64,000 bases of DNA from Minutocellus sp. GHC0000111 (Eukaryota), in contig OZ361259.1 of assembly GCA_977018835.1 (NCBI GenBank), positions 1,674,001 through 1,738,000 on the forward strand. The letters run 5' to 3'. Made by a program: the position numbers and the translations under genes. Shown here piece after piece: positions 779 to 34,153 of this stretch. Position 1 is the first letter of the stretch. The number at the start of each line of letters is the position of its first letter. The notes beneath the pieces were generated by a model, which saw nothing but the letters and a program-made list of their open reading frames with translations, searched no databases and was not told where the DNA came from.

Positions 779-2203
779 GGGCAGAAAAATGAATTAATGA
801 CGACGACGTTGAGCATTGTGCAAGGGTGGACATTATGAGAAAAGTGGCAAGAGCGCAAAGACAATGGATCTAACTAACAAATACGGTGCAAACGAGGAAT
901 GCAGATCAATGGTGTGTCTTTCAAAAAACAACATGCTGAAAACCTGGCAATGACACTTAGGACTCAATCAATTCATCGCATTGCAAAGAGTGAACGTTCT
1001 AACATTTCGGACTAGCACATTGCATTTTTCAGAAAACAGTAACAACTCCTTACATGTTAGAACACATGCGACAGAACAGCGTGCACACGAAAGAAAGCTA
1101 GTGCACTGTGCATGAGGTACAGAGGTGCGTCACGAAAAGGTAGAACAAGCAGGCTGGTCTGGCAGGTTGTTAACTACGTGTGCGTGCGCACGTGGCTGCT
1201 TAGTGGCCTCGCGCACCTCTAGCTAGGCACCTACGTAGCTAGGTAGGACACCACTTCACTCTTCTTAAATCCACAGTTACATGGTTTAATGCTCTAGATC
1301 CACTGTCTTAGAGAAAAATCAAAAGCCGGCCCGTCCATGCCGCAAAAAGTCGACAGTGGTCCACTAGATTTTGACCGAGAAGTCTAGTCAATGCCTTTGT
1401 CCGCCGTCAGAACTCATCTAGTGTTCCTGAACTTACTCCTATGCTCCAGGGCATGGAGGGCAAGAAGAGGGGCGCATGTCAGCCGAGTGATAAGCGAAAG
1501 AGAAAGAGAATTGGCACACTGTCCAGCAGAGAGCGCTGTGTGGAGGATGCCGGAGATGCGCATCTTGAGGCCAAAGAGACACGAAGGCAGACCGAACATT
1601 TCTTGTCAAAGAAGGCTGGAAAGAAGTCTATCTAATGTGTGCTTGTGGTGTGCCACCAGATAGTTGGAAGGAGGACCTAACAGAGGAGCTCTGAGCACAG
1701 CATGTTTCCTTTACGTGATTTGTCCCAAAATGTGATCCTGAGTTTTTCTCGGTGAGGCCAACATTTATGCCCCGAAATGTTGTGCGGCAGACTGCGAATC
1801 CATCAGACACTCTCTCACCAAAGCTCTGGGGTCAGCAGTCCTTCAGCGCCGTCGTTGCACCTGCGTGATGGGATAGGCAGGTTCACCCTACACACTTCTA
1901 CACATGGAAAGATTACCACCAAGACTTCTTCCGAGGCTTGACGAAGGTTCTACGTGCGTTGCTCTGCGCGCCTGTTGTCGCCTCCGGCACCCCGCCGGCA
2001 CCAGATGGCACCTTTACATAGTCCCCATGACCCCAAAATTGGGATCCTTCGAACCATCCAAAAATCACCAACGAGGATGTGACGTCAAATCACTCCCCCC
2101 AACCCCCCAAACCCCACCATGGGCGCCTTCACTTACCAATTGGTACTACGTAGTATTGCTCATCCAATCAAACCAGCCAGTTCAGATACGCTACTGCCGA
2201 ACA

Positions 2204-3474
2204 ATGGCAACCCGCGCCGTCGCAATTTTGTTATGCCTGCTCTGTTACGCGGCAGCTGCCCCACGCAGCAGCAGCGCGGTCTCCGACGGCGAGGAAGCGA
2301 CGCCGAGCCAAGTGATCCCTTGGCCGAGCCAGCCGAAGTCGACAACCTCGGCCGCGGTGCGACTTCCACTCGACGCGGCGGTCCGGTTCCATGAAGCCGC
2401 CGGCGGGGCCTTCCGAATCCTGAAGAAGGAACGGCGCCGCAGCAACTACAAGAAGGCGTCGGATCTGCCTGCGGCCGAGCAGCAGGACCGGGCGCTGTCG
2501 CCGTCAAATCTCCGTTTCCTCACCAGCGGCGACAACTCCTGCACCGACCAGCTCAACACGTGTCAGGTTGAACTCGACAATTGTCGGGAAGGCAAGGCGG
2601 CAGAAGCAGACGACAATGCCCCGTCCTACCTTTACGTGCAGATGGCCCAGACCTGCAAGCTGAAGCAGAAGACCGACGGCAGAGGCAGAACGCACTACGA
2701 GCTGTCCTCAAAGGACATGGACGACGACACCTACTCCTTCACCGACCGTCCGCACCGAATCGCCGGAACGATCCCCACGAAACAATTCGTCAAGGACTTT
2801 GGCACCACGTTCAGCATCGAGTCAGGCGGCCGGCCCAACGGCGTCGTCACCTTCCGCCACGCCGACGCCAAAAGCTTCGAGGGCCCGCTCATCTCGGTCT
2901 TTGTCGAGGCCGCCCGCCACAAGGACAGCGGCAAGTACGTCTACGAGCTGACGCAAAGCGAGGAGCAGGAGGAGGTGAACGCTCTCCGGGACTTCTTCCG
3001 CGAGGAAGAGGGCGGAAGCAATGACCCCGATGGCGTCGGTGTCGTCGAGTACGAGATGTGCTCCATCTTCATTGACGCCAGTAACGAATGCGATCCTGCC
3101 AACGTTGACTCCTGCAAGATGGGCAATTGTGTGTGGAAAGAGTATAAGAGCGACTGCGAAGCATGTCAGTGCTACGTTTCTGGACATGGGTCGAAACCCA
3201 ATAACAAACATGAGTTGAATGAGACGCCTCCTTGCTTTTGCGCGAGAAGAGTGCAAGAACTGGGAACAAGGCGAAGTGTGTGGACAAGAGGCCTAACGGT
3301 GACATTTGTCACATGAGCTGGCAGTGCAAAGGTGGGCATTGCAGGCAAGATGGCTTTTGCGCATCGCTCAAATCGGGCATTGATCGCTGTGGTGCAAACA
3401 TGGAATGCAGATCAATGCGTTGTTCTAATGGTTATTGCCAAGCTACTAAAGATTGGACGGACTGGCTCGACTGA
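2204..3474 (+). pseudogene. Tandem copy B of the secreted Cys-rich protein, frameshifted near 3241
   Basis: ATG 2204 is followed by a signal peptide (MATRAVAILLCLLCYAAA). Relative to copy A (TTTTGCGAGAAG) there is an extra CG (TTTTGCGCGAGAAG, 3241-3242), which moves the Cys-rich tail into ORF 3232-3474. Confidence 0.75.
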
Positions 3475-3768
3475 CGCACATGTGCATGTGTGAGAGGATT
3501 GTAGGCCACTAAAGTGAAGTGAATTTGTTCGCTACCCCATTCTACTTGTTCTGCATGTTTTGGTGGTTGTTACGATACATGAGTCTCACCCGTTCATTGG
3601 GGCCGGGTGGTTTTTGTTGATGTTGTGGGTTGCCTTCATTCGCTTGACAGTCTTCGCCGTCGGCGACGTTTCGGGGGGTCACTTTTGGGCTGTTGTTTTG
3701 GGGCCATACGATATCCGAGGAAGACAGATGACGGCTTCATCATTCCTCCCAACGATATCCCAGCCCAC

Positions 3769-4944
3769 ATGACAAATTCCACTTACAGCGGCAGCGCACG
3801 CTGTGATATGGCCCATGATCAGGCAGGCCAGCATCAAATGCATCAAGGCACGATACGACGTCGACGAGGGGCCCTCGCATGTTTCGTCGTCGGATGTTCT
3901 GTGCTCTACTTTCACTTTCCTTCCTCCTCGAATACGATGCGGAGGTCACTTGCCATGGAAAGCAAAACAGACGTATCAACCAAGAAACGCCCACTCTTGA
4001 AGCTTTTGGAAGGAGGAGGGCGCCTCGGTGATCAGCTTTTCATGTATGCCTCCCAACTTGGCCTGGCTAAGACACATGACATGGACTCTTGTATGGTCAA
4101 GACCGATCAACGTTTGACCATCGAGCAGATGTTTGTAGGACCAATCGAGTGGTGCGATGACGAAGAATACGACATCGAGTGGGTGGGTGGCTGGAGATCT
4201 GAGAAGGTCAGCCAGCTTCGACGCGTCGACGACGATGCGGATCTTGTCTATGGATTGAGTGGATACATGCACTCGCCTCGAAACTTTGTCGCGGCCAAGA
4301 CGCCCAGCGGAGACTTTGTCGACTACAGCGACCTACTGTATGAAAAGCTGACGTTGAAAACAGATGCAGAGTGGCAGGACGCGATACAAACGATAATGAA
4401 AGAGGGCGAACGCGACGAAGATGAATCCACTGAAGTAATAAAGGTTGGCATCCATGTTCGGCGAGGAGACAAGGTTGATGATCCCAAGTACACCGTGGCT
4501 GATGCCGACTACTATCGAAGGGTCATGGACTATTTCCGCAAGAAATACAACCGTGATTGCGAATCAAGCGGCGACACAGAGGATTGTAAAAGGGCTCGAG
4601 TCAAGTTTTACATTAGCACCGACACAATTTCCTGGATTGATGAAAACGACGAAACATTCGAGCATCCGGACGTCGTACTGTTATCGAATGCAGCCGAAAC
4701 AGAGGAGGAAGATAACGTGTGTGTCATGATCGACTTCGCAATGCTTACAAAATGCGATCACATTATCCTTTCGGGAGGAGGATTTGGTTTTTGGGCGGCC
4801 TATCTTGGTGCCAATCAGAATGGTGGGGAAGTGATCATCGGGTCAGCACAAGAGCATCTCAAAATGAGAACATCTAGCCTTGAGGAGTGGACCAACATTG
4901 ACAAAGTAGACTTCGATGCAGAGAACATTGCGGCTGTTAAATAA
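3769..4944 (+). CDS. Glycosyltransferase family 11 (alpha-1,2-fucosyltransferase-like), type II membrane protein
   Basis: GT11 motifs GRLGDQLFMYA, VGIHVRRGD and DFAMLTKCDHIILSGGGFGFWAAYL, plus an N-terminal TM segment. Start codon uncertain (3769 or 3808). Confidence 0.9.
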   Translation: MTNSTYSGSARCDMAHDQAGQHQMHQGTIRRRRGALACFVVGCSVLYFHFPSSSNTMRRSLAMESKTDVSTKKRPLLKLLEGGGRLGDQLFMYASQLGLAKTHDMDSCMVKTDQRLTIEQMFVGPIEWCDDEEYDIEWVGGWRSEKVSQLRRVDDDADLVYGLSGYMHSPRNFVAAKTPSGDFVDYSDLLYEKLTLKTDAEWQDAIQTIMKEGERDEDESTEVIKVGIHVRRGDKVDDPKYTVADADYYRRVMDYFRKKYNRDCESSGDTEDCKRARVKFYISTDTISWIDENDETFEHPDVVLLSNAAETEEEDNVCVMIDFAMLTKCDHIILSGGGFGFWAAYLGANQNGGEVIIGSAQEHLKMRTSSLEEWTNIDKVDFDAENIAAVK

Positions 4945-5006: not shown

Positions 5007-5265
5007 CTACCCACAAGTGCCGTCATGTCGGCACTTTCTCCCGGCGGGGCACTGGCTAGAGTAGCGGCACATGCTCGACGTTGTCTGGGTCATGAGGTTA
5101 GACGTCGTGCCAAGTCCAGCATCTAGAATCACATTGGGTTCAGCTCGTCGGGTCATCTTCTCCTTGATCTTGGCCGGTCCCTGCTTCTTATTGCCGGGAT
5201 ATTCGCGAGATGTTTCGCTAAGGAAGAGGGTTGCCACGCCGGCGACCATGCCAGCGGCGGTGGAG
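5007..5265 (-). pseudogene. 3' fragment of the subtilisin-like S8 protease gene (STAAGMVAGVATLFL...CRHDGTCG*), separated from the 5' part by the 7.1-kb insertion
   Basis: Translation continues the S8 catalytic helix (consensus GTSMAxPHVAGVAAL) and joins in frame to 12370+ across the duplicated TGGAG. Confidence 0.88.
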
Positions 5266-5313
5266 AGTGATCATTACAGTCTAAGCTACTACTTTAAAGT
5301 GCCTACAATTGGA

Positions 5314-6680
5314 TTACTCAACATGCACTGAAAAATCGTTGTCCTTGACAGTAAATGCTCGAGCAGCTGCTTCTTCGTTTCTCAAGTGGTTGTGTGCGCA
5401 GGTGTACCAAATGGAGCGAACTGAACTGAAAATGTCGTCGCCCTTTTCATTCTTGTACTTTGTCAGTGCATCGTGCCTTCTTTTGTCCAGGGTTCGATTT
5501 GTGTGCAAACTGATTGTCGTTGGCCACCATTTAGTTCGGAGCCAGTCGTACCCTTCAACTAGCTTCTTCTGGTTGTCTGTGCGACTTGCGACCTCCACCT
5601 CCAGCACCGCCAAGACGTCATCCACGAATCCAATGGCCGTGGCCTCGTCGTCTCGATCGTTCTGCTCCTCCTCCGTCAAGTCTCGCTTGAAGTGGCCGAG
5701 AAAGGTGGCGTTCTTCAGTGCAGACAGGTAGTTCATCTGCCTTCCGGCTTGGTGTGCTTGCTTCACAAAAGCAGCGGCCAGGTACAGCAGGACGTGCCTT
5801 GGGGTGGATCCATCAGCCACTGTTCCGTCGTCGTTTCGATAGTACTCTCGACCCTGAGTCTGCTGTGTCGACACCCCTCCGGAGCGATTGGCCCCCCAGC
5901 AGCCGGCTGGACTCTCGGGTCGTCCAGGAACTGATCAATGTGGGGGGCGGTGGGTCTGAGCAGGGCCCGGATGGTCTCCACAAACTTGTGCCGGTGGCGG
6001 TAGACGATTGCCGTCATGGGCAAAGCGCCCTCGCCAGTGCCGTCGTCGTCGCCGCCGTCATCGTCGTCGTCACCCCAGAGGAAAGCATCTTCCTCGGCCT
6101 GCCGCTGATCCTTGATGGCCAGGCCCTCCTGCGTCGGCTCCACAGAGAGGCCGGCCCTGCTGCTGCGCTGCATGGCCGCAAATGACGCGTAGGCCGTGCC
6201 GTCCTGGCCGGGAAAAGACGGGAGGAACATTGCCGTTTGCTCGGCCTCCACCACCTCCGACCATGCATCTATGAAGCTGCTTTCTATGGCCTCGAGAGCT
6301 GTAGCCCCCCCTGCCCTCTCTTGCACCATTTCGAGGAACTCTTCATGGGAGACCCCCAGGGCCACGGCGGCGTCGGCCAGCTCGTCGACCAGTTTCCCAA
6401 ACCACTGGTCCGGAGCTCCGGGTTCATCGATGGCCCTCTGGATCTGCTCCTGGACAAGCGCGCTCGCCGCTCGCACGGCGATGCTCTCTGGAGGGGCTGG
6501 CACGTCCGAGAGTTGCGGTGGGACAGGCGCCGTGGGCACGTCTACACCCAGCTCTTGAAGCCGCTGGCGAGCTGTGGCTGCGGTGGCCAGTGCGCGGGCT
6601 ACATCGTTGGGATCATATGTTGGTGGGTCTCCCGCACCTCCGCCTTGCGTCCCGGCGGGATCGGCTCGTTCGTCACTCAT
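5314..6680 (-). CDS. Element ORF1, unknown protein; probably one gene with a frameshift at about 5875-5930
   Basis: Overlapping ORFs 5763-6734 (ATG at 6680, MSDERAD) and 5314-5874. The second frame is open up to ~5930 and the overlap contains a C6/G6 run (5892-5897). Confidence 0.6.
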
Positions 6681-6786
6681 GGCGACGGCCCAGATATGAA
6701 TGGCCGTAAGCTCCCCCCCATATTTTCCCCGCATTTCAAGTTTGCTTTCCCCCTCATTCCTACTTTTGCTTCATTATTTGACTGTT

Positions 6787-8214
6787 ATGGTATCCACCGC
6801 CGCCGAACCCACGAGCAACGGCCGCCGCAGCTTGCGCAGCAGCAGTAATAAGGAAAAGAAGAAGCCCGATGGCTGCCTAACTGGCAAGGTTGAGTACCTC
6901 CATGCGCCTGCTCCCCACGCCATCATCACCGAGAACAATCGCAAGAGACGAGAGACTGAGGCGGCCAAGATGGCGGCCGAGGAGCAGATGCAGCAGCAGA
7001 AGCGCACGCGCATGTCGGAGGTGACGGCGGCGACGGCCGATGCGTCAGTATCCAGCAGCGGAGGCGATACTGAGGGCGGTAATACCAATGGGATGCAGAT
7101 GGATGATGATGATGCAGAAACCACCATGGCGGAGGTCGCCACCACCACCACCAACAATAACAACAACAACAACAACACGGAACCGGCTGATACGGCAACG
7201 GACGGCGCCAACGAGCCTTCCGACGGAGAGGACGGAGATGCCAATGGCGTGCCCGGGACGATATCCGTCGTCGGCCCGGACCAGGCCAACGCTGTCGGCC
7301 GCAGCAATGGTGCCGGTGCTGGTGCCAATCTCAGTGATGCGGCCGTCGGTGGCAGCACCAGCCATGGGGACGGGGCCGAAGACCAGCCTGCGGATGGGGC
7401 GGGCGGGACGGGCGAGATGAACGTCGTTGACCCGCTTGTCGGCATTATGCGGTCGTACTGTGCTTTGAAAGGGATTGGCGTCGACAAGGCCGAGCTGATG
7501 GCAATTGCCGCCCTTAGAGCTGCCACGGGTGAAGCGGAAGTTACCGGTGGCGGTGATGGCGGTTGTATCGGTGGTGCCGCCGATGTGGGCCGCCTCACTA
7601 TCCCCCCCGCCAATGGCGGCGGGGGACAGCCTACGGAGGAGCAGATGGCCTTTGTTCGGACGTCCGTTGGGTTGGCCGATGCATCGGATGCATCGCCGGA
7701 AGTGCTGCTGAATGCGGTGGTCCCTTTGTGCTGCTCCCTGGCCATGGACTGTTACCTCCTGGGAAAGGAGCTGGGTGCTTCCAGTCGGGCAGGGATTATG
7801 GCGGCCGAGGCGCTGTCCCAGGAGAAGGGGAAGGGAGTGGGGCTTGGAAAGGCCAATGCCGAGCTTGCAGCCAAATGCAATGGGCTCGAGGCAGACGTAA
7901 CGGAGCTAAGCCAGAAGCTAGAGACTTTGAATGTGGAGGAGGAGGAGGAGGAGGAGTGGGAATTCATAGCTCACGATGGTGATGAGCGATACCATTGGGT
8001 GCCTTGTCTGTTGAGCGGAGACCTGGATCGTGGCCACAACCGTCTGCTCAACTCAATCTGTGACAATCTCAGTTTGCCCAGGACTGGTAGAATGGAGGAC
8101 AAAGTCCATCGCCTGCGCTCATACGTTGGGGAGAAGGCAGCTGAAGCCCGTTGGGTCAGCGATGACGGCGATGACAGCGATGGTGCAGAGGAGGAGGCAA
8201 TGGACGAGGAGTAA
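6787..8214 (+). CDS. Element ORF2: low-complexity N-terminus, coiled coil and C-terminal SAP-like motif
   Basis: ATG 6787, basic NLS-like patches, poly-N/T and poly-E tracts. LLNSICDNLSLPRTGRMEDKVHRLRSY resembles the SAP consensus (L...C...GL...G.K..L..RL). Confidence 0.65.
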   Translation: MVSTAAEPTSNGRRSLRSSSNKEKKKPDGCLTGKVEYLHAPAPHAIITENNRKRRETEAAKMAAEEQMQQQKRTRMSEVTAATADASVSSSGGDTEGGNTNGMQMDDDDAETTMAEVATTTTNNNNNNNNTEPADTATDGANEPSDGEDGDANGVPGTISVVGPDQANAVGRSNGAGAGANLSDAAVGGSTSHGDGAEDQPADGAGGTGEMNVVDPLVGIMRSYCALKGIGVDKAELMAIAALRAATGEAEVTGGGDGGCIGGAADVGRLTIPPANGGGGQPTEEQMAFVRTSVGLADASDASPEVLLNAVVPLCCSLAMDCYLLGKELGASSRAGIMAAEALSQEKGKGVGLGKANAELAAKCNGLEADVTELSQKLETLNVEEEEEEEWEFIAHDGDERYHWVPCLLSGDLDRGHNRLLNSICDNLSLPRTGRMEDKVHRLRSYVGEKAAEARWVSDDGDDSDGAEEEAMDEE

Positions 8215-8332
8215 AATGTAGCAAGTCAATGTCTGTCGGACGGAAAGTGAAGAGGTAGAAGTAGATCTAGAGATAGCAGTAGAGTCGGATGGTAGATAAT
8301 TTAGTTTAGGGGATCATTCATTCTAGAAACAT

Positions 8333-10072
8333 TTATTCCTGATCAGATGCTTTTCGAGCCTCCCTCAGCTTTGCCCTTGTAACACGAACGCCCTCATCAA
8401 ATTCATATTGCAATATTTCCTGCATGTCGCTATAAAATTGCGACAGGCATCCCTCGTGGTCCTCTACCTTGCCCTTGCGATATCTGTTGACAAAAGGATC
8501 AACAATCCAATCGAACTGGCCACCGTGCCGGTGGCTAAAGGCCTGCAATGTCCTAGCGCCGTCCTCCAAATACTTGTTTAAGTATTGGCCGATAGAAGCC
8601 ACCGTTTCATTTACCCCTCCTCTATTTTCGGGAAATACGCAGGAATCGAGCTGGGCCTCGAAGTTCCCACCACCGTCACAAGCTGCAACCGCTACGCCAA
8701 ACGCTTTCACGTGAGAATTTGGCCCCGAATAATACAAACCAAGTCCAACTTTCTTATTGCCCATTTGATGAAACGATCGAAGGGCCACTTCATCCGTTGG
8801 CATCACTCCACCGTACATGCCCTCCACGATGGCACAAAGAGAGAAAAGAGCCATGGCTCTTTGATTCTCGTTGCTGGTACCGCGAAATACGTCAGTCGCG
8901 AAGGCATCAACATATTCCTTGACGGTATTCGACATGAGAGACATTCCTCTGTACGTGAGGTATTGCTTCGGAGTCCAAAGACCCAAATCGATGGCGCGGT
9001 TGTACACTATCTCTGCATCTTCATCGCGCATTGTGTGCGTAGGAAGGACAGTAACGATAGTGCTGAAAAAAGCGGTATTTGAAAGCATAATCTCCGCCTC
9101 CGCCGCGGACTTTGCCTTGGAAATAAGATGGTTTCGAATTCTCATTCTTCTGGACACCTCATCCTCCGAAAGATACGGAGTTGGCTTGGTAGCGTTTTCG
9201 ATGCAGAAGGACGCATCGTCGAGATGCTCCAGAAACACATTCCAGAGCATCCAAAACATTCTCGGCGTATGCATGTATCGCATAACGATATCCGCGCCTC
9301 CCATGGCAGGATCACGTCTAATGTAACACAGGAATTTGTTGAGCGATTCCAACCGACCACCTTTCATCAACACTACCGACCGTGCCTCCTCATCGGATCC
9401 GTTGAGAATGCTATCCAATTCTGACTGGCTCCATTCACTCTTCTTTTTTGTAGATACGCGCGCATTGTACAATTGCTCCCGATAAGACGTGAGTAGATAC
9501 GGCTCGCCATTTCGTATCTCGTCCTTCTTTTTCATCTCATGGGGAACCAAGTGAGTTGCCACTTTGTGCTTTGCAAAGCAAACCAGCAAATTTCCGAGAG
9601 TATCAGGATTGTTCTTGCATGCTCTATCAATCCAACGAAGATGGCTGTTGTTGATGATATCGCCCGCTCTTATCCGCTCGTCGCTCCGTATCGGTACCAT
9701 TGCATCACACATGTTCGGGGGCAGCACATACTCCAACTCTTTGAACAGGTTGTTCTTGCCTGCCTGCCAGTAATGCGTTACAAATACATTGTAAGCGATG
9801 GCTCGGCCGGACCGGACAGAGTGCTTCACCGCACCTTTGTTCCAGGCAAAGGATGGCTTGGATATGATAATGCCAGCTGCTTTGCTCTTGGCTCCATCGT
9901 TGAGCATCTCGATTGTTGGTTGACGCTCGCGCTGGACATAAGCCGACTGATTGGCGCCGCTTCTCTTTGGCTGGTTGTGCCGCTTGCTACTTGGGACACG
10001 CTGCCGACCGGGCCCTTTGGGTCCTTTCGCAGGGCGACCACGGCTGCGCGCCTTTGGCTTTTGAGTATCCAT
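8333..10072 (-). CDS. Element ORF3: basic N-terminus plus divergent HhH-GPD (endonuclease III/Nth-like) DNA glycosylase fold
   Basis: FFSTIVTVLP...TPKQY...RAMALFSLCAIVEGMYGGVMPTDEVALRSFHQMGNKKVGL...PNSHV...VNETVASIGQ follows Nth motifs in order. The open frame extends to 10210, so the start is uncertain. Confidence 0.7.
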   Translation of the reverse strand: MDTQKPKARSRGRPAKGPKGPGRQRVPSSKRHNQPKRSGANQSAYVQRERQPTIEMLNDGAKSKAAGIIISKPSFAWNKGAVKHSVRSGRAIAYNVFVTHYWQAGKNNLFKELEYVLPPNMCDAMVPIRSDERIRAGDIINNSHLRWIDRACKNNPDTLGNLLVCFAKHKVATHLVPHEMKKKDEIRNGEPYLLTSYREQLYNARVSTKKKSEWSQSELDSILNGSDEEARSVVLMKGGRLESLNKFLCYIRRDPAMGGADIVMRYMHTPRMFWMLWNVFLEHLDDASFCIENATKPTPYLSEDEVSRRMRIRNHLISKAKSAAEAEIMLSNTAFFSTIVTVLPTHTMRDEDAEIVYNRAIDLGLWTPKQYLTYRGMSLMSNTVKEYVDAFATDVFRGTSNENQRAMALFSLCAIVEGMYGGVMPTDEVALRSFHQMGNKKVGLGLYYSGPNSHVKAFGVAVAACDGGGNFEAQLDSCVFPENRGGVNETVASIGQYLNKYLEDGARTLQAFSHRHGGQFDWIVDPFVNRYRKGKVEDHEGCLSQFYSDMQEILQYEFDEGVRVTRAKLREARKASDQE

Positions 10073-10512
10073 GGCTGCAAAGCGATATGTTTGCGATCGG
10101 CCGCCAGCAAATGCAAGCATGGAAAAGACAAAATGTGATTTTTCGTTGGATTTTTCGATTGTTTTTTCGACCAGGGGGAGGCTGATTTGATTTATTTTTA
10201 ATTTCATCACATGAAAAGATACAGATACAATACCTACCTTCCCATCTTTCTCACATCATGTACTTTCAGCATAAATATCAATATTTCTTAGAAAGGACCC
10301 CAAACCGTCAAAAACAGAGCTTTGCTTCTTCTCGCGCGGCATGTCGCGTGCCTTTTGGAGGGAAAACGGGGGTCTCCTCCTTTAAATTCCCCCTTATATT
10401 CTGAGACAAATGGGTTATGAGTCAGTCATGCATTCATCTCACATGTTGCGTTGCCGGCACCGGAGGAGCGGTTGTACTGGGCCGGAGTTGCTGAAAAGGA
10501 GGAGGGAACATC

Positions 10513-12198
10513 ATGAACTTCCGTAACATCGCTATTGCTGCGCTTGCCGCTCTCGGCTCTCAGCCGACAGAGGTGTCCGCCCGCGCTCTCCGCCACCGCC
10601 AGGGGGAGGCCTCATCCACCCGAGGCGATGGGCCATCGCACCATCCATGGGCGTACGGCGCAGCAGCTGCTGCAGCGGCGGCATTTGCTGCGGCAAATAT
10701 GGTGGGCGGAGGCCGAGCTCGTGGTGGCCGCCGCTCAGCTGCCAATGGCGACGAGGAGGAGGTCGACGAAGAGGAAGACATCGCCCCCCTCCCCAGCTCG
10801 TCTGACACCCCCGGAACAGCCAATCCTCTCGCGCGCATGGGGTCTGTTCCGGGACCAATCCCCGGGGCGGCACGGGAGGTCGAGTCCGCCCCTGCTATTC
10901 GCCGGACCGGACCACGACTTGGCAACACGTCCGGCCAAAGGAGGCGCCGCGACACTCTCCGCATGCTCGGGGGGCAGCCACCAGAGCTCATACCAGAAGG
11001 CACTCCCCCGTCTGGACTAGAGATCGACGTCCCGATGTTTGAGATAGACCGAGAATACGAGAAGGCAGGATTCGAGCTCACCACGCCGGGCGTGTTTTAC
11101 CACGAACGGACGCAAATGCCCTACCGTCTTGTGGGTGTGCTGGAGGGAACCAGGGACTGCCTGGTTCGCCTCCGAGTTCTGGACGACGTTGTTGATGCCA
11201 CGGAAACGGCCACCGCCCATCAACAGCTCGAGGACGCGCGGCTAGATCATTCGGCGGAGTCGATAGGCGACATCCTTCTGACCATTCCTATTGCCATCGA
11301 CGATGACTCTGATCTTACCCGTCCCTTCGGATACAAAGGCCTACGGAAGGCGCCAACCATCAAGGCTCTAAAGATACCATACGAGACCGAGCAGGAGATT
11401 GCTGACCACATCGCCGGCATGAGGGGAGAGTATGTCGTCTACTACAAGGTGATCAACGGGGAACGGAAGAGGAAGGTCGTGAGGTCAGCAGCAGGGATCC
11501 CTCGGCGTGCGAACCTGAAGAACTACCGCGTTGATGAACTTGTTATGATATCCAAGGCTACACCGGAAGAAAGATCGCTTCACCCTCGCGTCCCAAGTTA
11601 CGGCGGCACCGTTGCCGATTGTCAAAGGTTTCATGCTGATTTGTCCAAGCATAAAAATCTTGTGCTTGCGACATACGCTAAGTACATAGTTGGGCGTGAT
11701 CTAGTGCCAGTTTCAGACTTGGAAATGGTCCCAGCAGCTGGGAAGCACTGGGTGATCGCAGAGGAAATATTGGCCCAGCGCATGGACACGTGGGGAGAGT
11801 ACAAGGACTCTGCAAATTTTGTGGGTACCGCGAAAGTTACTTACCGCAAAATAACTGCACTTACCAATGCGGTGATGTTTGGCACACACCACAAGCTTAC
11901 ACCGAACTGGAGCGATGACTACCATTCCTGCCACCTGGGTTGCGAAGGAGAACACAACGGCACCTGCACACTGTACACTCACGTGACGTTTGGTACGGCG
12001 AAACTAAACGAAGGCCTTCACAAGAAGTGCCCTGGCCACATCGTCGTGGTGCAACCCGGCGGCAGGCTCCGTGCGTACAAGGTGTGCCGATGTGATGCAG
12101 ACCCCAGCCAGACCCCAGCACAACTTTGCTGCATGAAGATGAGGGTAGTTTCAGTTGGAGCGGAGGTGCCCCTGGTGTGGGTCGGAGGAAGGGTGTAG
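10513..12198 (+). CDS. Element ORF4: C-terminal His-Cys box / His-Me finger zinc-binding endonuclease (I-PpoI-like homing endonuclease family)
   Basis: HSCHLGC..HNGTC....HVTFGT...N....KC.G...CRC...CC matches the SHLC-HN-xxC-xxxxH-x8-N-x5-C pattern of the His-Cys-box zinc loop. Confidence 0.72.
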   Translation: MNFRNIAIAALAALGSQPTEVSARALRHRQGEASSTRGDGPSHHPWAYGAAAAAAAAFAAANMVGGGRARGGRRSAANGDEEEVDEEEDIAPLPSSSDTPGTANPLARMGSVPGPIPGAAREVESAPAIRRTGPRLGNTSGQRRRRDTLRMLGGQPPELIPEGTPPSGLEIDVPMFEIDREYEKAGFELTTPGVFYHERTQMPYRLVGVLEGTRDCLVRLRVLDDVVDATETATAHQQLEDARLDHSAESIGDILLTIPIAIDDDSDLTRPFGYKGLRKAPTIKALKIPYETEQEIADHIAGMRGEYVVYYKVINGERKRKVVRSAAGIPRRANLKNYRVDELVMISKATPEERSLHPRVPSYGGTVADCQRFHADLSKHKNLVLATYAKYIVGRDLVPVSDLEMVPAAGKHWVIAEEILAQRMDTWGEYKDSANFVGTAKVTYRKITALTNAVMFGTHHKLTPNWSDDYHSCHLGCEGEHNGTCTLYTHVTFGTAKLNEGLHKKCPGHIVVVQPGGRLRAYKVCRCDADPSQTPAQLCCMKMRVVSVGAEVPLVWVGGRV

Positions 12199-12369
12199 AG
12201 AGGCCAGCGTTCTTTTAAGTAGTAATTTCGAACTGTCGCCACACATGATGGAACCTTGAGCCTCTCCGGACACATAGCTGAGTTCCTAGCGCAAGGTCGT
12301 GACTGGTATGTAAGGTATTGACTTCTATAGCATTAACCTAAGCTATTCGTTATTGCTCAATTCAACTAC

Positions 12370-13879
12370 TGGAGGTGCCCTGAGCTTGGACGGATCCGTC
12401 GGTGCCAACGTTGGATGCACCGGTAATGGTGGAGCCAGGAGCAAAGAGGTCGATGCAGGCTCCATAGTTGGAGAAGGATGAACGCGTGTGAGATCCGGAG
12501 AGGCTGTCATCGACGGCGGCGACCGTAATGGCCAGGCTTGAGTAGGGAGAGAAGTTGCAGGCGTCAGCTATAGATTATTGAAAGAGGCAACAGAAAGGGA
12601 TCGATTGAGATATATCATGTGAAGGATACTGCAGTGAAGACATAAACTGTATATATTAATAAATAGAAGCCGACTACTTACCGTTCTCGTTTCCGGCAGC
12701 AATCACCACGGTAATGCCCTCGTTGACCATTTCTTCCACGGCCTGGTTCAGAATTTCACTCTGTCCCTGCAGACCCCACCCAATGACCGCCACGGCCTTA
12801 CTCTTGGTGCTGCCATGGCTAGCCTTGTGATTGCTCGCCGCCCATTCCATACCGCAAAGCACCGACGTCGTGGTACCCTCGCCGTTCATGTCCAAAACTT
12901 GAACGGGATGAAGCGTCGCCGCCTTACCGGCACCATAGGATGCTCCACCTGCAATCGAAGCAACGTGAGTACCATGGACAGTGTTCGACCAGTCACTAGA
13001 TCCACCGGTGCAGCTCGTGCCACTTTGCATCCTACCTGAGAACTCTTGATGGGCCGTGTGAATACCCGTGTCGAGGACGTAGAGATCGATATTCTTCCCA
13101 TCGTGAAAGTAAACATATGCTCCATTGCGCGGGCCGCGGGATGACATGCGATCTAGTCCCCAGTTTTTAGATGGATCGTCGATGTTGTTCCATCGCCACA
13201 TGGCCAGGGAACGATGCCCATCATCGACAAAGGTTTCCTCGAGCATCCGTTTGGTCTGCGCCTGCTCATCGGACAGTCGACGCTGGCTCCCGGCCTCCTC
13301 ATCGACATCCTGGGCCTCCTGGAGGTTTCGAACATGTTCGGCAATGGGCACCGCCTGGGCCGTACCTCGGGCGTAGACCTTGTAGTTGTTCTCCATCAGC
13401 ACGACGCTGGCATCGAGTGCCATGGCGGCAGCCTGAGCCTCCTTCAGTATGGCACTGAATCCCTTGATGGTTTGATCGTAGGTCGCCATCAGTGTGCCGC
13501 CGTAGGTGCTGATCAAAGAGGAAGCGGTCACGTCAGCCTTGGGCATGTTTCTACCAGTTGCGACAGTTACAATGTATTCCGAAGGAATTATATCAGATGC
13601 TGGCGGCGGGTTGGCCACGGCTAGATGACGCTCGGTGGTTTGAGAAGAGTCGGTCTCGAGACGGCGGAGGGGGTTGGCTTCGTTGCCATCGGGGGTACGC
13701 GTGTTGATCTTTTGAGAATCTTTGTTCTGTGACCGACTCTTGACTGCGAGATATCTTCGTTTTTGCTCGAAATTATCAGAGCTAAAGGATGTCATACCCA
13801 GAATGCACACGCCGGCAGCCATAAGAGTTATGGAGAGGACGGTCATGGTCCGCTTGCCGTCTCGTCGGCTGCCGGTCAT
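12370..13879 (-). pseudogene. 5' part of subtilisin/proteinase-K-like S8 serine protease (I9-like prodomain); exons 13879-12682 and 12567-12370
   Basis: Catalytic Asp (YVLDTGI), His (HGTHVAS), oxyanion Asn (AAGN), SNYG and IDLFAPG motifs, then GTS running into a stop inside the insertion. GT-AG intron 12681-12568. Confidence 0.92.
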
Positions 13880-22824: not shown

Positions 22825-25800
22825 ATGGACAGCAACCCTTCGAATGGTAAAGGACAAGTTGCCTCGGTGGCATCCGGCGATATCGTCAGCGATCATGAGA
22901 TCTCAGCACAAGATGTGCCGGCTACAAACGCCCGCCCCGGCGCACAAGAGGGTGTTGAAGGGAACCCGAACTCTGCCGGTACCGCAAATGCGAATGCAGC
23001 ATCAACTAATGACCGGAGGGACACCCCCATGTCTCCGCGCGGTGATTTGGACGCGGCAGTAACAAACTTTGTCAAGCATGGGTCGTTTGATATTTCGAGA
23101 AATGGCGAGGGCGGTACTAGTAATGCTGAAAATGACTCAGGTGACGAGAAACCAGCACATGATGGTTCGCGTAATCAAAGGGACGATAGTAGGGAGGGAA
23201 ACGATACAACGAAAGGAACTCCTGATAATTCGGCGGTGCCCAAGATGGATGGTAGCAGAGCCATTCAATCATCTGCCCCAGCCGCTGACAAACCAAAGTG
23301 GTCCTCCCCAGGAGATGGCAATCCTCGTCAATCCGACCGACTTACCGTCAACAACAAGCCAGCCTGCGCCTACGACGGCTGTCCCAAGCAATCCCAAGGA
23401 CGCAGACTCAACTTTATGTGCATGGCGCACTTCAAATCCATCACCGGGGGCAAGATGATCACACCGATTAGCAAGACTGCCTACGATCCCAACAAGGTGA
23501 TTCCGGCAGAAGATGTCGGCAAAGGCTGGACGGTATTGGAAGTGCCCCGCATCAAGGTCAAGAAGACGAATGGAACGAAGACGGTGGACAAGTACTGGTT
23601 CTCACCCGTCAAGCACCACCGTTTTAGGTCGAGGGTGGAGATTGAACGCTTTCAAAAGGCATTGGAAGAGGTGGACGGTGGTGATGAAGATGCTGCCTGG
23701 GAATTATTCCGAAGGGGTGGCAAGAAGGACAGCCGATCGGCCAAGGGGAATGGCAATGGCGATGGCGATGATCGGTGTGAAGATAGCGATTCTTCTTCCG
23801 ACGAGGACGATACCAGCGATTGGATATGTGACAATTGCGGGGCAGAGGTTCCCGAATCGTTGTCGCGATGCAAGTGCTACCGATGGCGCAATGGCATTCA
23901 TCCCATGATGAAGAAGAAGTTTAGGCGCCAATGAGAACAGGCACGGGCATTGGCCGAACGTTCTGGCGATGATAATGAAGATCTCAATGGTGAATACTGG
24001 GATAAAGACGAGGGTAACGGCGGTGGTGCGGAGAAGGTACCCGGCGCAACAACCACGCGTTCTGGGCGCAAGAGCGGTCGCCGGAAGACCCTTGCCGACG
24101 AGCAGGCCAAGGCCGCCGAGGCAGCGACCAAGAAGAGACAGCGTGGCGCCAAGGCTGCTGCCGCCGGCAAGGAGGACACCATTTCTACTGCTAGCCCTGG
24201 AAAGAGTGCCATCGTCACAACAAAGAGCAGCAGGGCGGCACCACCAACGCCGGCCAAGGCGCGGAAGCGTGTCAAGTCATCTGCGAAGGCTCGGCGAGAT
24301 TCGCGAAAGCGAGAGGCGGCCGAAGAAGAGGAGGTGGCCGCCGAGGAGGGCAAGTTGAGCGATAGTTTTCATGCCACGATGCTACGGGCGGTCAACGAGG
24401 CGCCGAATCCGTATGCGCAGGCCCTTGCCGCAGCGGCTTTCGATGCTGCCGGCGGTGATGCTTGGCTCCGGGAGCATGTGACCAAGCAAGCCGTGAGGAC
24501 GAATGTAACCCTAAAGGTGCTGGGGATGGCACCGATTCCGCCAACAAAGATACTTTCAGCAAAAGAAGATTCCGTGAAAGATGTTTTGGAAGAGATCGTA
24601 TCCGCAGTCGAGGCTAGAGATCTTGCGGTAAACCTTCCGTCGAACTCGTTTGTTGTGTCCTTGAGCAAACCAATGGGAATCACCCTATCGCAGAAGGATG
24701 GTGGCGGCGTTCGAGTCTCAGCAATCAAGGCCGGCAGCCCTGCCGATGTTTCAGGCAAAGTCAAAATCGATGATACTCTTCTAGCAGTAAATGGAAAGGA
24801 TGTGAGAAAGAAGGAATTCCGCGCTATCCTTGATGTCATCGGCAAGAGTGGACCGTCCGTGGACATGCTCTTTTCCTCTAAAGAAGAACAGAAAGAGCAG
24901 CCAAACCATGCCATTACGCCTGAAACTTCTATTCCCATTGTCTCAGAGAAGAATAATCTTGTCGATGACAACTATACTGCAATGGAAATTGAGAATGAAG
25001 TACCTCCGGATACTCCCGCCGAGCCTCTGGTGGAAGACCCTCATTGGGATTGGGACGAGGCGAAGCAGATCAGCTACCGGCAAGTTCTGCGCATATCGGT
25101 CAAAGATCCTCACGCGAAGCAGCTTGTGACCGATGCTCGCATCAGTGGCATTCCTGTCGTTCTCACAGATCATATTGGATGGGCTGGGTTTGCCGCCCGG
25201 TGGCTCCGCCGAAAAGACACCGAGGAAGCCCTTGATGTATGTGGCGACGAGGAAGAAAAGAAGTCCGATGGTGGGAGGGAGGCTAGCAATGCAGAAACAA
25301 TCGATGGCAAAGCCCTCGATCTATCTGATCCTTCTCTCTACCTTGACGTGGAGGCAATGGCAGAAGATACTGGTGAGCAAGAGGTTCCGGTCATCAAAAA
25401 GAGCTATGACGACACAGATCCCATCGCCGGCAAAATCCCTCTTCATGTATTTTTGCAAGAGTCTTGGCCTTCTCGTACATCAAAGACTGCGCACAACCAA
25501 ACGCTCTACCTTCACCAATGGCAATTTCCTTTGAATGAGGTGGCAGGCCGAAAGCTTTGCCACCAAAGTCAGCCCCTTCCCAACTCAATTTTTGGAGAGG
25601 ATTTGCATAAGTATTGGCTGGATCGGGTGCCAAACGATTCCTCTCTGCAATATCTTTTTATGGGCAATGAAGAAACGATGAGTCGCATGCACAAGGACCC
25701 TGGCGGCCTTGCCATTACGATTGCGCCGATTGTTGGCGAAAAGGAATGCGTGCTTGTCCATAGAGATGACGGCAACACTTGCCTCTATCACTTGGAAGCA

Positions 25801-28800
25801 TCGATTGACCCCGATAACATTGATCTCGATGCCTACCCTCTCCTTGCAAATGCTCGTATTTGGCGAACAACGGTGAAGCCCGGAGAAATTCTTCTCATGC
25901 CACAGGGCACCTACCATCAATGTCGCAACGTGAAGTCCTGTCTCTCCTATAGTCGATTCCATCTGGATGAAGTGAATCTACCAGCGTTCTTACAGAGCTT
26001 GTTCGATGGGGACGCGACCGAGCTTCTGCACGACGAAGTCATCTGGAACGCGGTCGAAGCACTAATGAAGAAGGTGGACAAAGTCACCGATGCCGGCCAA
26101 GATCTTGTGAAGAATTCCATAAAAGAAGGGAAAGCCGCCCCACTTTCCCCAGGCGATATGCGGGTGAGCGAGGACATTTGCAAGGCAATTAATGCCCTCC
26201 GGTCACTCCGTCATGTTGCTCGCGAGATTGCACGTAAGCTCGACCTCCGGGAAGCCGTCAAGGGTGTTGGTGTCGACGAAATGCCCGGGCCGTCTTCCGG
26301 CACCAGCAAAATCGAGGGTGGTAAAGAGACCTGGTTTGCAATGGTCGAAGATATTGACTATTGTTTGCATGAATTTCGCTATCGCTTCTCCAAGGAGGTT
26401 CCGCCTCTTTCATTGCGGTGATGCTTGGCTCCGGGAGCATGTGACCAAGCAAGCCGTGAGGACGAATGTAACCCTAAAGGTGCTGGGGATGGCACCGATT
26501 CCGCCAACAAAGATACTTTCAGCAAAAGAAGATTCCGTGAAAGATGTTTTGGAAGAGATCGTATCCGCAGTCGAGGCTAGAGATCTTGCGGTAAACCTTC
26601 CGTCGAACTCGTTTGTTGTGTCCTTGAGCAAACCAATGGGAATCACCCTATCGCAGAAGGATGGTGGCGGCGTTCGAGTCTCAGCAATCAAGGCCGGCAG
26701 CCCTGCCGATGTTTCAGGCAAAGTCAAAATCGATGATACTCTTCTAGCAGTAAATGGAAAGGATGTGAGAAAGAAGGAATTCCGCGCTATCCTTGATGTC
26801 ATCGGCAAGAGTGGACCGTCCGTGGACATGCTCTTTTCCTCTAAAGAAGAACAGAAAGAGCAGCCAAACCATGCCATTACGCCTGAAACTTCTATTCCCA
26901 TTGTCTCAGAGAAGAATAATCTTGTCGATGACAACTATACTGCAATGGAAATTGAGAATGAAGTACCTCCGGATACTCCCGCCGAGCCTCTGGTGGAAGA
27001 CCCTCATTGGGATTGGGACGAGGCGAAGCAGATCAGCTACCGGCAAGTTCTGCGCATATCGGTCAAAGATCCTCACGCGAAGCAGCTTGTGACCGATGCT
27101 CGCATCAGTGGCATTCCTGTCGTTCTCACAGATCATATTGGATGGGCTGGGTTTGCCGCCCGGTGGCTCCGCCGAAAAGACACCGAGGAAGCCCTTGATG
27201 TATGTGGCGACGAGGAAGAAAAGAAGTCCGATGGTGGGAGGGAGGCTAGCAATGCAGAAACAATCGATGGCAAAGCCCTCGATCTATCTGATCCTTCTCT
27301 CTACCTTGACGTGGAGGCAATGGCAGAAGATACTGGTGAGCAAGAGGTTCCGGTCATCAAAAAGAGCTATGACGACACAGATCCCATCGCCGGCAAAATC
27401 CCTCTTCATGTATTTTTGCAAGAGTCTTGGCCTTCTCGTACATCAAAGACTGCGCACAACCAAACGCTCTACCTTCACCAATGGCAATTTCCTTTGAATG
27501 AGGTGGCAGGCCGAAAGCTTTGCCACCAAAGTCAGCCCCTTCCCAACTCAATTTTTGGAGAGGATTTGCATAAGTATTGGCTGGATCGGGTGCCAAACGA
27601 TTCCTCTCTGCAATATCTTTTTATGGGCAATGAAGAAACGATGAGTCGCATGCACAAGGACCCTGGCGGCCTTGCCATTACGATTGCGCCGATTGTTGGC
27701 GAAAAGGAATGCGTGCTTGTCCATAGAGATGACGGCAACACTTGCCTCTATCACTTGGAAGCATCGATTGACCCCGATAACATTGATCTCGATGCCTACC
27801 CTCTCCTTGCAAATGCTCGTATTTGGCGAACAACGGTGAAGCCCGGAGAAATTCTTCTCATGCCACAGGGCACCTACCATCAATGTCGCAACGTGAAGTC
27901 CTGTCTCTCCTATAGTCGATTCCATCTGGATGAAGTGAATCTACCAGCGTTCTTACAGAGCTTGTTCGATGGGGACGCGACCGAGCTTCTGCACGACGAA
28001 GTCATCTGGAACGCGGTCGAAGCACTAATGAAGAAGGTGGACAAAGTCACCGATGCCGGCCAAGATCTTGTGAAGAATTCCATAAAAGAAGGGAAAGCCG
28101 CCCCACTTTCCCCAGGCGATATGCGGGTGAGCGAGGACATTTGCAAGGCAATTAATGCCCTCCGGTCACTCCGTCATGTTGCTCGCGAGATTGCACGTAA
28201 GCTCGACCTCCGGGAAGCCGTCAAGGGTGTTGGTGTCGACGAAATGCCCGGGCCGTCTTCCGGCACCAGCAAAATCGAGGGTGGTAAAGAGACCTGGTTT
28301 GCAATGGTCGAAGATATTGACTATTGTTTGCATGAATTTCGCTATCGCTTCTCCAAGGAGGTTCCGCCTCTTTCATTCAGCAGGCCAAGGGGAAAGAAAC
28401 GCTTTGCTTTGCCATCGACACTGATGAAGTGCAAACGTGACGACGCCGCGAACATCACGGTGTACAATGGATACCAACGAGTTGATAATGACGAAGATGG
28501 AAGCCCAATATTGGCCTTCTCCACAGACATTGAGCGCGGATACATTTTGCTTTCAAAGGCCCCGGCACAAATGACGGAGGAAGAGCGACTGCAGATGAGC
28601 AAGAAGATTGCAAATCTTTCCATCGGCGAGACAATTATGGTCAAAGTGAAGAACAAAATGTGTGACGCGACTGTGATGGAGATTCGCAAGCACGAACACG
28701 CTGCATACATCAGCTACGAAGCCTACCCGGGTCTCTACGATGAATATCTACCAACAAATCTCTTGCGTGAACCCATTGGCGGCAAAGCAGAGGTGCCGCT

Positions 28801-32136: not shown

Positions 32137-32639
32137 ATATTCCCTTTCTGCTGATGTGAATGCTCTTCTTCGCCCCTTTGCTGTACGTATGCCTTGGTTG
32201 GATACCGCCGTATCTCTTTTGGCATGCGGCCTTCAACACAAGTTGTGCTTTCGAAAATCGGCGGTCGAGAGCGCGAAGGTCCTTTCCGTCGTCCGTTTCT
32301 GCTTCCTTTCCTCGCCGATCCACAGCACCATCTGCCAGCCGGATGACTCGCATACTTTTGGTCGCACTTTCGGTGGCCGGCCGGCGCGCGAAGCAACCGA
32401 CCGGCGCGCCCAACGCGAGCCACCATGGCGGCAAAAATTCAAATTGCCGCCGCTACGTGCAGAACGAAGGCGATATCTCGCGCTGGTGTGGGAGAATTAC
32501 GGCACGAGACCAACCAGGTACTCCCGACATCCTGGTGATATCCCCGTTGGTCTCGATCCATAGTTCTCCATGAGCAAAAAAAATAACGGCCGCAATCCCG
32601 CGGTCAACACCGCAGACAGAGTTGCGGTGAAGGACGCCC

Positions 32640-34153
32640 TTGGCTGAACTGCTCGTCCGTCTTCGCAGAAAGGAACTTCATTGCTACAATTTCATCGGCA
32701 ACAACAACGACTCCTTGATGAATGTGTTGGGATGCAGTCCCATCATGTACGGCACCGTCATGCACACTGCGGGCATCTTGGGTTTGAAGAAGAAGAAACA
32801 CGAAGACTGCGCACGATGTGTTTTTTGTGAGAGGACAGACAACCAGAATGGATGGGATGAAATGGCATCAAGACACTGCCTTGCCGACGACGTTCAGCGA
32901 ACCCCATACAAAAAGAGCATATTTGTTCGCCTCGGTTCTGTCAATCCTCGTGCAGCCGACGCTCTCCATGATGATGGATGGATGGCTTTCGACATGTGGT
33001 CACGGTCGAGCAACAATTTCGCCTCGAAATGCCGCCGCCGCGGCTCAATTTGACGAAGGCATGTAATGCATTCCTCAAGTCGGTCGCACCACATGTGTCG
33101 GTGGGATATGCAGCGATGGACTACGAAATCAACAGGCAGATGTTGCTCGAGGCCCAGAAGTTCCCTGGTGGGCACAATGGCCAGGACGATGGGTGGGACA
33201 ATGACGACGATGTTGGGACGGTGGGCACCCTGACCACGACGGAGGCCGGCGAGATCAGTGAGGACGATGACGACGAAGACGAGGACTATGTGCCCTGTTA
33301 TGAGGACGAAGCTGACATTGCAAGAGAGGACGCTACACATGAAGCACACATGCAGCAGCACTTTGAGAAGAGTCGTCAGAAGCACGGTGATGGCGAGCCA
33401 GAGATGGGAGCTGTCGATGATGCCGAGGATGACGATGCCCCTCACTTCCATTTCCTGAAAAAGGCCGGCATTGAGGCGGCCGACTCAGGTAAAATAAGGG
33501 CAGTGCTGGCAGAATGCTGGAGAGCTTTATCTGTTAACATTTCTGATGGCAACAACAAGAAGAAACCAAGGACAATAGAGTTCATCCACCATAACACCTC
33601 CACCAAAGGAACTCTCCTAGAGCACAATCGCGAGGAAGATGGCATGACGGATGACGACATCAAAGAGCTCTGCAAAGCTTGCTCTAATTTGCTCCACACT
33701 CTTGACGCAATGTGTTCCAGGTTTCTGAAATGGTACATGAAATGGGATGACGAGGCAAAGAAGGCTGTGAGAGAGCTTGAAGCATTGATTGCAAGTGCCC
33801 TCAAGCAAGCACGGGCAATCGGTGTTAGCACAACGCCCAAGTGGCACTTGCTCGAAGATCACATCTTGGACCAACACATTTGGCTAGTGAAGAATGGATG
33901 GGGCGGCATCTATTGGCTCGACGAACAGTTTGTAGAGCGAGCCCACCAAGAGGGCGTTAAGGAAGATCGTCGGACTCAGGGCGTCAAGGGACATGAGGCC
34001 CAACAGACGGCGCAGTTCAAGGCTGAGGAGAGGGCATCCAATCCAAAGGTCGAGGAGAGGCGGGAGAGCGAAACTCTCGGGTGGCAAGAACAAGGAAAAG
34101 GACAAGGACCGAAGCTGTTAAAGCAGAAACTGATGACAAGCGCCAACAAATGA
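32640..34153 (+). mobile_element. Degenerate DDE DNA transposase remnant (Transib/Chapaev/RAG1-like C-terminal motif)
   Basis: TTPKWHLLEDH...GGIYWLDEQFVERAHQ resembles the TPKxHxxxxH...G..xEQxxExxH signature. The upstream frame is fragmented and no ends were defined. Confidence 0.6.

Follow-up and report, generated by a model that had tools for sequence, protein, structure and literature searches.

A 7.1-kb Insert with a Predicted Nuclease Gene Splits the Serine Codon of a Subtilisin-Type Protease Whose Second Haplotype Is Scarred beside the Insertion Site

In the 64,000-nucleotide stretch of DNA that we analyzed (the window), a 7,104-bp insert at 5266-12369, with TGGAG on each side, splits the Ser465 codon of a proteinase-K-type S8 protease gene. 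A filled haplotype, a haplotype that carries a small scar directly beside the insertion site, a target duplication, and a broken reading frame are observed, and the 7.1-kb insert is likely mobile DNA. As the best explanation we tentatively propose, at a little short of an even chance, that the element's predicted nuclease cut the empty homolog and that end-joining repair then left the scar. One diploid thus combines a filled and a scarred copy of the gene with a candidate nuclease that is intact.

The Protease Gene and Its Insertion

The S8 gene lies on the minus strand and is composed of the following parts, given in the direction of the gene.

12682-13879, minus strand: S8 protease exon 1, with an I9 propeptide and D, H, and oxyanion N motifs (Pfam PF00082, Peptidase_S8, E 2.9e-11; PF05922, Inhibitor_I9, E 1.9e-4)
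12568-12681, minus strand: predicted GT-AG spliceosomal intron of 114 nt, donor at 12681, after which exon 2 resumes in frame as ADACNF
12370-12567, minus strand: 5′ part of S8 exon 2, ending G-T-S, aligning to aqualysin-1 160-222 (E 1.2e-8)
12370-12374, plus strand: right copy of the TGGAG duplication, containing the Ser465 codon TCC (12373-12371); C-TCC-A in gene sense
5266-12369, no strand assigned: the insert, on one of two haplotypes, terminal inverted repeat of at most 3 bp
5261-5265, plus strand: left copy of the TGGAG duplication
5007-5260, minus strand: orphaned 3′ half of the S8 gene, from AAGMVAGVATL to the stop, with a Cys-rich tail

The GTS of this protein aligns with a GTS in aqualysin-1 that ends at residue 222, and we take that Ser222 to be the nucleophile; the duplicated 5-mer spans the TCC of the motif, as an earlier note on this DNA had read it. 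The same note's description of the two halves is also confirmed: translation of the 5′ half gives QGTSSS*, and that of the 3′ half, 7.1 kb away, gives STAAGMVAGVA, just upstream of which TAA and TGA stand in frame. Deleting the insert together with one 5-mer yields an in-frame coding sequence of 1,650 nt (549 aa, one intron). The reconstructed protein has five residues from GTS to VAG, the same spacing as in all four bacterial S8 homologs, and its sequence after the serine is atypical, with TAAGM where MAxPH is expected. An equally valid placement of the boundaries gives a 4-bp duplication, GGAG, and an insert that begins with AGT and ends with ACT. A search of the PDB with the 3′ half alone gave no match. 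The insert is also found in an independent short-read assembly (run X1), in which contigs covering 5199-7921 and 7967-12362 have one differing letter and no gaps. S8 paralogs in organism A are indicated by raised depth and loose ends at 12389-12478 and 13181-13466, together with a skip of 57 nt (in frame, depth 40).

One alternative, to which we give only the slightest probability, is that the insert is spliced from RNA as an intron and the protease still functions. Transposon-made introns are widespread (PMC12130899, excerpt), and in gene sense the insert starts with a donor-like GTAGTT, but it ends with TCTCCA, and none of its six possible junction slides gives GT-AG. No nearby AG restores the protein: only one of the six in the last 60 nt of the insert keeps the frame, leaving an in-frame stop, and all eight listed in the next 115 host bases shift it. 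The earlier statement that canonical splicing would not repair the gene therefore stands. Contigs from RNA runs X6 and X8, which belong to two studies, match parts of the insert ORFs at 99% or more but include neither the S8 exons nor a joint; such contigs prove no transcription, and they neither show nor exclude a repaired S8 transcript.

Inteins and group I introns leave no target duplication and restore the host gene. The analogy with them that had been suggested for this insert fails on both counts, since TGGAG stands on both sides, in-frame stops lie at both junctions, and no GT-AG splice restores the protein; an Rfam scan showed no group I family. Unlike an intron or intein that removes itself, the element would be selfish DNA that kills its host gene.

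Given an insertion in the S8 coding sequence, the chance that a 5-bp duplication overlaps the Ser codon is 0.4%; for any codon of the triad it is 1.3%, and for the triad plus the oxyanion Asn it is 1.7%. These probabilities are post hoc and concern a single site, so they do not demonstrate targeting, in agreement with the earlier caution that one site cannot exclude chance. The principal rival explanation is a chance insertion in the serine codon by a cargo-carrying non-autonomous DNA transposon, in which case the indel on the homolog would be a footprint moved by homolog recombination or an independent or tolerated polymorphism, and ORF4, the candidate nuclease gene, would be otherwise employed, as proposed for KolobokP. 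We regard this combination of chance and footprint as a serious possibility that falls somewhat short of probable, and as nearly as likely as the nuclease-cut reading. A match to a catalytic codon has a probability of 0.4-1.7% per insertion, and a scan of a genome takes in many insertions; furthermore, KolobokP nucleases do not determine the integration site, according to an excerpt of PMC9587614.

The Second Haplotype

The host has GT-AG introns and, judged by run depths, two haplotypes; the style of its genes may be that of marine diatoms. Depth in X1 is about 86 over the insert and about 170 in its flanks, which places the insert on one of the two; the other differs in one small host segment.

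5249-5260, minus strand: 12 host bases of the T-A-A-G-M region, replaced by 3 bases on the other haplotype, a net loss of three codons right after Ser465

On this other haplotype 5248 is joined to 12370 with GTG between them, at a depth of 94.9 in X1 and 7.25 in X5, the joint being drawn from short contigs whose shorter side spans only 30 letters; X5 comes from another study and may be the same clone as X1, and X1 may be the window's source. Compared with a clean empty site the sequence lacks 9 bases, and its translation is G-T-S-T-L-V-A-G, so that GTS-TL-VAG stands against GTS-xxxxx-VAG in all four homologs, whereas the filled allele keeps the canonical spacing. A clean empty joint is absent among the three joints listed. 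We assign the scar to the second haplotype because depths match in pairs, the element (85.8) with the window-type exon (88.5) and the scar (94.9) with the variant exon (95.2). It is possible that the scarred sequence is a very close paralog instead of an allele, and also that the scar is a natural indel tolerated by a protease that was already odd after its serine.

Differences between the haplotypes in the exons, taken at half depth, fall at third positions in 20 of 23 cases and leave 20 of 22 codons synonymous (among the 40 of 104 entries listed). From this synonymous bias we infer that purifying selection acted on the S8 gene in each lineage, which makes the two lesions look recent. On this comparison, insert and scar both look younger than the split of the haplotypes, and the element is unlikely to have been present in both before that split, so a plain excision footprint needs an extra copying step. 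These points weigh against the chance reading, since the bias speaks against an old shared insertion. That reading requires either that two recent lesions arose next to each other in a 1,650-nt coding sequence, for which a rough estimate is 1-4% (host DNA of about 2.4 kb has two to three joints of the indel type), or a multi-step route of excision plus conversion. In its favor, the scar letters CAC plus T (gene sense) are the same as the last four bases of the insert, as a footprint might leave, and mitotic recombination between homologs is frequent in diatoms, if the host is a diatom (bioRxiv 2020.11.08.373134, excerpt).

That the two lesions are adjacent and both look young suggests a common cause, namely breakage of the empty homolog at this site, and the position of the scar beside the duplication in both X1 and X5 favors such a break. 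Under the nuclease-cut reading, the element would have entered at a staggered cut, the enzyme for which probably acted in trans because no transposase was recognized in the insert, and its insertion would have killed one allele of the S8 gene. ORF4, if active and able to recognize the sequence, would then have cut the empty homologous allele at the same site, and end-joining would have mended the cut homolog and left the 9-base scar; this is the order of events that we posit. If ORF4 does recognize the empty site, repair from the filled homolog would copy the element into it (homing), and an end-joining product would be a cut-resistant allele, which the second haplotype resembles. A 456-nt contig of organism B carries a match to 12370-12478 that is preceded by 250 other letters, so an S8 relative exists there without this insert.

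ORF4, a Candidate Nuclease

Four open reading frames were considered in the insert.

10513-12198, plus strand: ORF4, 561 aa, intact, with a C-terminal His-Cys-box-like motif at about 11929-12135 (His474 at 11932, Asn499 at 12007)
8333-10210, minus strand: ORF3, 625 aa, with a C-terminal HhH-GPD (endonuclease III/MutY-like) glycosylase domain
6700-8214, plus strand: ORF2, 504 aa, largely low-complexity, with a C terminus that looks SAP-like by eye
5314-6734, minus strand: ORF1, two overlapping frames (5763-6734 and 5314-5934) with a frameshift; no family

Counted from H474, the ORF4 motif has C at +3, C at +11, H at +16, N at +25, C at +32, and P at +33. When compared by the residue numbers given in the text of PMC9587614 (excerpt) for I-PpoI (H98, H110, and N119), the step of nine from H to N in ORF4 equals that from H110 to N119, and the first loop of ORF4 is four residues longer. 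The catalytic His, the zinc His, and the metal Asn are present at an I-PpoI-like spacing; E114 of I-PpoI is not kept. The only relative of ORF4 found, P0004 (49% identical), shares with it the pattern H-L-G-C...C..Y-T-H...N...H-K-K-C-P-G...C-x-C...C. In two of three C-terminal cuts of ORF4, PF05551 is the only Pfam match (E 0.1 and 0.041; 13.3 and 14.5 bits), below the curated cut-off of 27 bits, and Pfam gave no match for the third cut, for the P0004 C terminus, or for whole ORF4. PDB searches with ORF4 returned no His-Me nuclease, atlas searches with ORF3 and ORF4 were blank, scans of viral contigs with ORF4 and P0006 found no relatives, and the AlphaFold models (pLDDT 35 and 31, the latter for ORF4) are too low for use. 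On the strength of the motif we predict that ORF4 likely is a His-Cys-box nuclease.

We count in favor of the nuclease reading that ORF4 alone is intact among these three genes, ORF1 having a frameshift and ORF3 lacking its Asp. Against it stand the assignment of ORF4 below the threshold, the failure to find a second S8 insertion, and a near-asymmetric site: the empty site mirrors only 5 of 12 and 3 of 12 positions, and I-PpoI binds a semi-palindrome (PMC9587614, excerpt).

A Glycosylase-Family Gene and the Remaining ORFs

ORF3 is a cargo gene from a DNA-glycosylase family. The six matches of an ORF3 search comprise one full relative at 80%, four related fragments, and one unrelated sequence. 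A profile of 12 endonuclease III/MutY sequences detects P0006 at E 1.7e-6, P0002 at 0.017, and ORF3 at 0.04, all of which score better than any of 237 window ORFs and 900 shuffles (the best of these having 0.35); P0005 and P0009, which are short fragments, do not appear in the 12 best entries listed. Alignment of the ORF3 family with the endonuclease III/MutY family by hhalign gives 92.6% (E 4.6e-7). In NCBIfam, P0006 matches mutY and nth at E 0.005 and P0002 matches nothing, and one member of the P0006 cluster is named endonuclease III. Like HhH-GPD glycosylases, the ORF3 family keeps the helix-hairpin-helix G-x-K and a downstream D-x-H; unlike them, ORF3 has about 370 unrelated N-terminal residues, sits inside an insert, and is without the catalytic Asp. 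The copy in the window is missing 10 residues and has N in place of this D, which is present in all four homologs and in E. coli Nth, and it is predicted to be inactive as a glycosylase. A scan of metagenome contigs with ORF3 found nothing, the alignment of six ORF3 sequences was too loose for scanning, and phage tblastn with P0006 gave chance matches only.

The frameshift of ORF1 recurs in the X1 DNA contigs and is unspliced in two RNA runs, and a search of 1,785 candidates (362-2,000 aa) gave no homolog of ORF1b. Organism A contains relatives of the ORF1 middle at other places, as loose ends at 6038-6072 show; except for related DNA around 5780-6070, the insert body is single-copy. The C terminus of ORF2 has a possible SAP-like motif; its segment 7990-8169 has no Pfam match at E 10, and whole ORF2 is without a significant match. 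In Pfam, PHROGs, and NCBIfam, no ORF of the insert matches a DDE or tyrosine recombinase family, although a very divergent transposase in ORF1 is possible.

A transposase or recombinase that escaped recognition, Dada- or Crypton-like and encoded by ORF1 or supplied in trans, could have conferred a real site preference, inserting in one allele and cutting, or entering and leaving, the other. One enzyme would then account for both duplication and scar, and the related copies of the ORF1 middle are in keeping with this. Like this insert, Cryptons have short direct repeats and lack inverted ones, and the stramenopile CryptonS elements, known from oomycetes and a diatom, have 5- or 6-bp repeats (PMC3212892, excerpt). 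However, no tyrosine recombinase (R-H-R-Y) or DDE family is matched and the repeat is TGGAG rather than TATGG. A Dada-like target-specific transposon would be expected in several copies at one target sequence; of this insert one full copy is seen, the other loci sharing only the last 70 nt. We consider such an enzyme decidedly unlikely. ORF3 itself had been entertained as a tyrosine recombinase on account of an HxxR...GxW...Y look-alike and was rejected in that role, since the look-alike sits in a protein of the HhH-GPD family.

The Repeated Right End and Other Loci

The end-to-end repeats of the insert are not above shuffles, the direct score being reached by 147 of 2,000 and the inverted score by 1,582 of 2,000. 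One end is shared with other loci.

12299-12368, plus strand: right-end sequence of about 70 nt, repeated at other loci of organisms A and B

Over this sequence, summed depth peaks at 1,450, 2,277, and 1,458 in runs X2-X4, against 62.5, 101, and 54 for the element, or about 22-27 times single-haplotype depth, a ratio inflated by overlapping contigs that are counted twice. At least 10 loose ends leave the insert behind 12351-12368 (among the 24 of 52 entries listed); seven of these 10 run into an AAGCC-AAAGGGT motif and three into other letters. Loci that share the 70-nt end differ from the element upstream of about 12300, and thus have its end and not its body. This occurrence of the right end in non-S8 settings is in line with chance insertion and, as far as these contigs can be read, would weaken site specificity without refuting it; the loci are no clean refutation because their upstream DNA is different, so that they are not copies of the element, and loose ends by definition leave out S8-like continuations. 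The right junction into TGGAGGTGCC is found in one contig per run at depths of 70, 109, and 55, comparable with the element depths above, and at this single-haplotype depth there is no second identical junction.

The homing-type reading of the earlier note consequently stands in part: it is strengthened by the His-Cys-box-like motif of ORF4 and by the indel directly beside the insertion site on the homolog, but a second insertion at an S8 GTS was found neither in the run contigs nor in public contig scans. Public scans of viral, metagenome, and prokaryote contigs with the end motifs likewise yielded no further loci. If targeting is real, a GGCACCTCCA-like consensus is expected at both junctions of full copies.

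The adjacency of ORF4 to a repeated end raises the further alternative that ORF4 is RNA-guided, with the 70-nt right end as scaffold and the flank as guide, as in the restorative homing of TnpB and Fanzor. The order of nuclease, conserved end, and flank is that of such systems, in which a transposon-borne nuclease lies beside the right end and would cut the empty site, and RNA guidance would remove the difficulty that a nuclease relying on protein for target recognition is unable to follow a transposon (PMC13565253, excerpt). Nevertheless, the right end folds no better than shuffles (z 0.15 and -0.02; further values 1.23 and 0.39), it has no Rfam match below E 2.1, and at other loci the repeat is about 14 nt longer. 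ORF4 is predicted to have another nuclease fold and matches neither TnpB/IscB nor RuvC/HNH OMEGA families. We therefore regard RNA guidance as very improbable.

At those other loci, the longer repeat is bordered by variable sequence on both sides, and it could represent an independent small element or recombination site. ACTGG at 12302-12306 and 12368-12372 frames the repeated right-end sequence. A 48-nt piece at 12248-12295 matches organism B, where different sequence continues. Taken by its letters, the right end looks mosaic.

Comparison with Known Mobile Elements

Two known systems invite comparison. KolobokP resembles the insert in carrying such a nuclease; it differs in encoding a DDD/E transposase, for which no insert ORF has a match in Pfam, PHROGs, or NCBIfam, and in lacking a glycosylase-family gene. 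As described in excerpts of PMC9587614, KolobokP also has terminal direct repeats of 450/660 bp and inverted repeats of 11-18 bp, neither of which the insert has; it duplicates TTAA, in contrast to TGGAG (or GGAG), and it shows no target preference. The His-Cys box endonucleases of nuclear group I introns (I-PpoI; PF05551, group 12 of PMC5714182, excerpt) share with ORF4 the H/C/C/H/N/C-P pattern, and with the locus an insertion at a conserved site and a homolog that resembles a cut-resistant allele. Unlike these, the insert has no ribozyme intron, does not lie in rDNA, has a target duplication, and destroys its host gene, and ORF4, with 561 aa, has a long N terminus without assignment in addition to its longer loop. 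The insert would be mobile DNA with a homing-type nuclease that works like a His-Cys-box homing element but is neither a group I intron nor an intein.

According to a 2026 review (PMC13565253, section 6.3), a homing nuclease guided by protein has little prospect of evolving in a transposon that moves from site to site and persists only in one that keeps to a single kind of target; for Dada, the target-specific group, the review knows of no report of such a nuclease. This argument cuts both ways for a site-specific reading of the insert. The most far-reaching form of that reading, which we hold to be unlikely though worth stating, is an intron-less eukaryotic homing element whose His-Cys-box nuclease recognizes the G-T-S codons of subtilisins, which spreads between homologs and destroys the host gene, and which occurs here beside a natural resistance allele and with glycosylase-family cargo. 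If true, it would in effect be a natural gene-disrupting drive. If ORF4 cuts nothing, what remains is an unclassified mobile element with a His-Me nuclease and a glycosylase-family gene, a pairing for which our search of the open-access literature found no paper.

Other Features of the Window

Several further features were seen elsewhere in the window. A 392-aa stop-to-stop frame at 32975-34153 (plus strand) contains a KWHLLEDH...DEQFVERAHQ stretch that presumably resembles the C terminus of a RAG1/Transib/Chapaev-type transposase; the frame has no Pfam or NCBIfam match, no clear terminal inverted repeats, and no similarity to the insert. Inside a PDZ-JmjC gene, 24452-26414 and 26415-28377 form an exact tandem duplication of 1,963 bp (100%), which is either an assembly artefact or a very recent duplication. 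A direct repeat of about 700 bp (1-673 and 2674-3372; 95% with gaps) copies the 3′ part of the ORF at 1904-3316. Convergent with the S8 3′ half is a glycosyltransferase family 11 gene at 3607-4944 (plus strand; E 2.8e-16), within which the two haplotypes differ strongly at 4638-4819. Further along, 29176-32232 (minus strand) encodes a fusion of type I dehydroquinase with shikimate dehydrogenase that is extended by a long N terminus, and 43565-47137 (plus strand) encodes a RanBP2-zinc-finger protein with many FxFG/GGF repeats that is nucleoporin-like.
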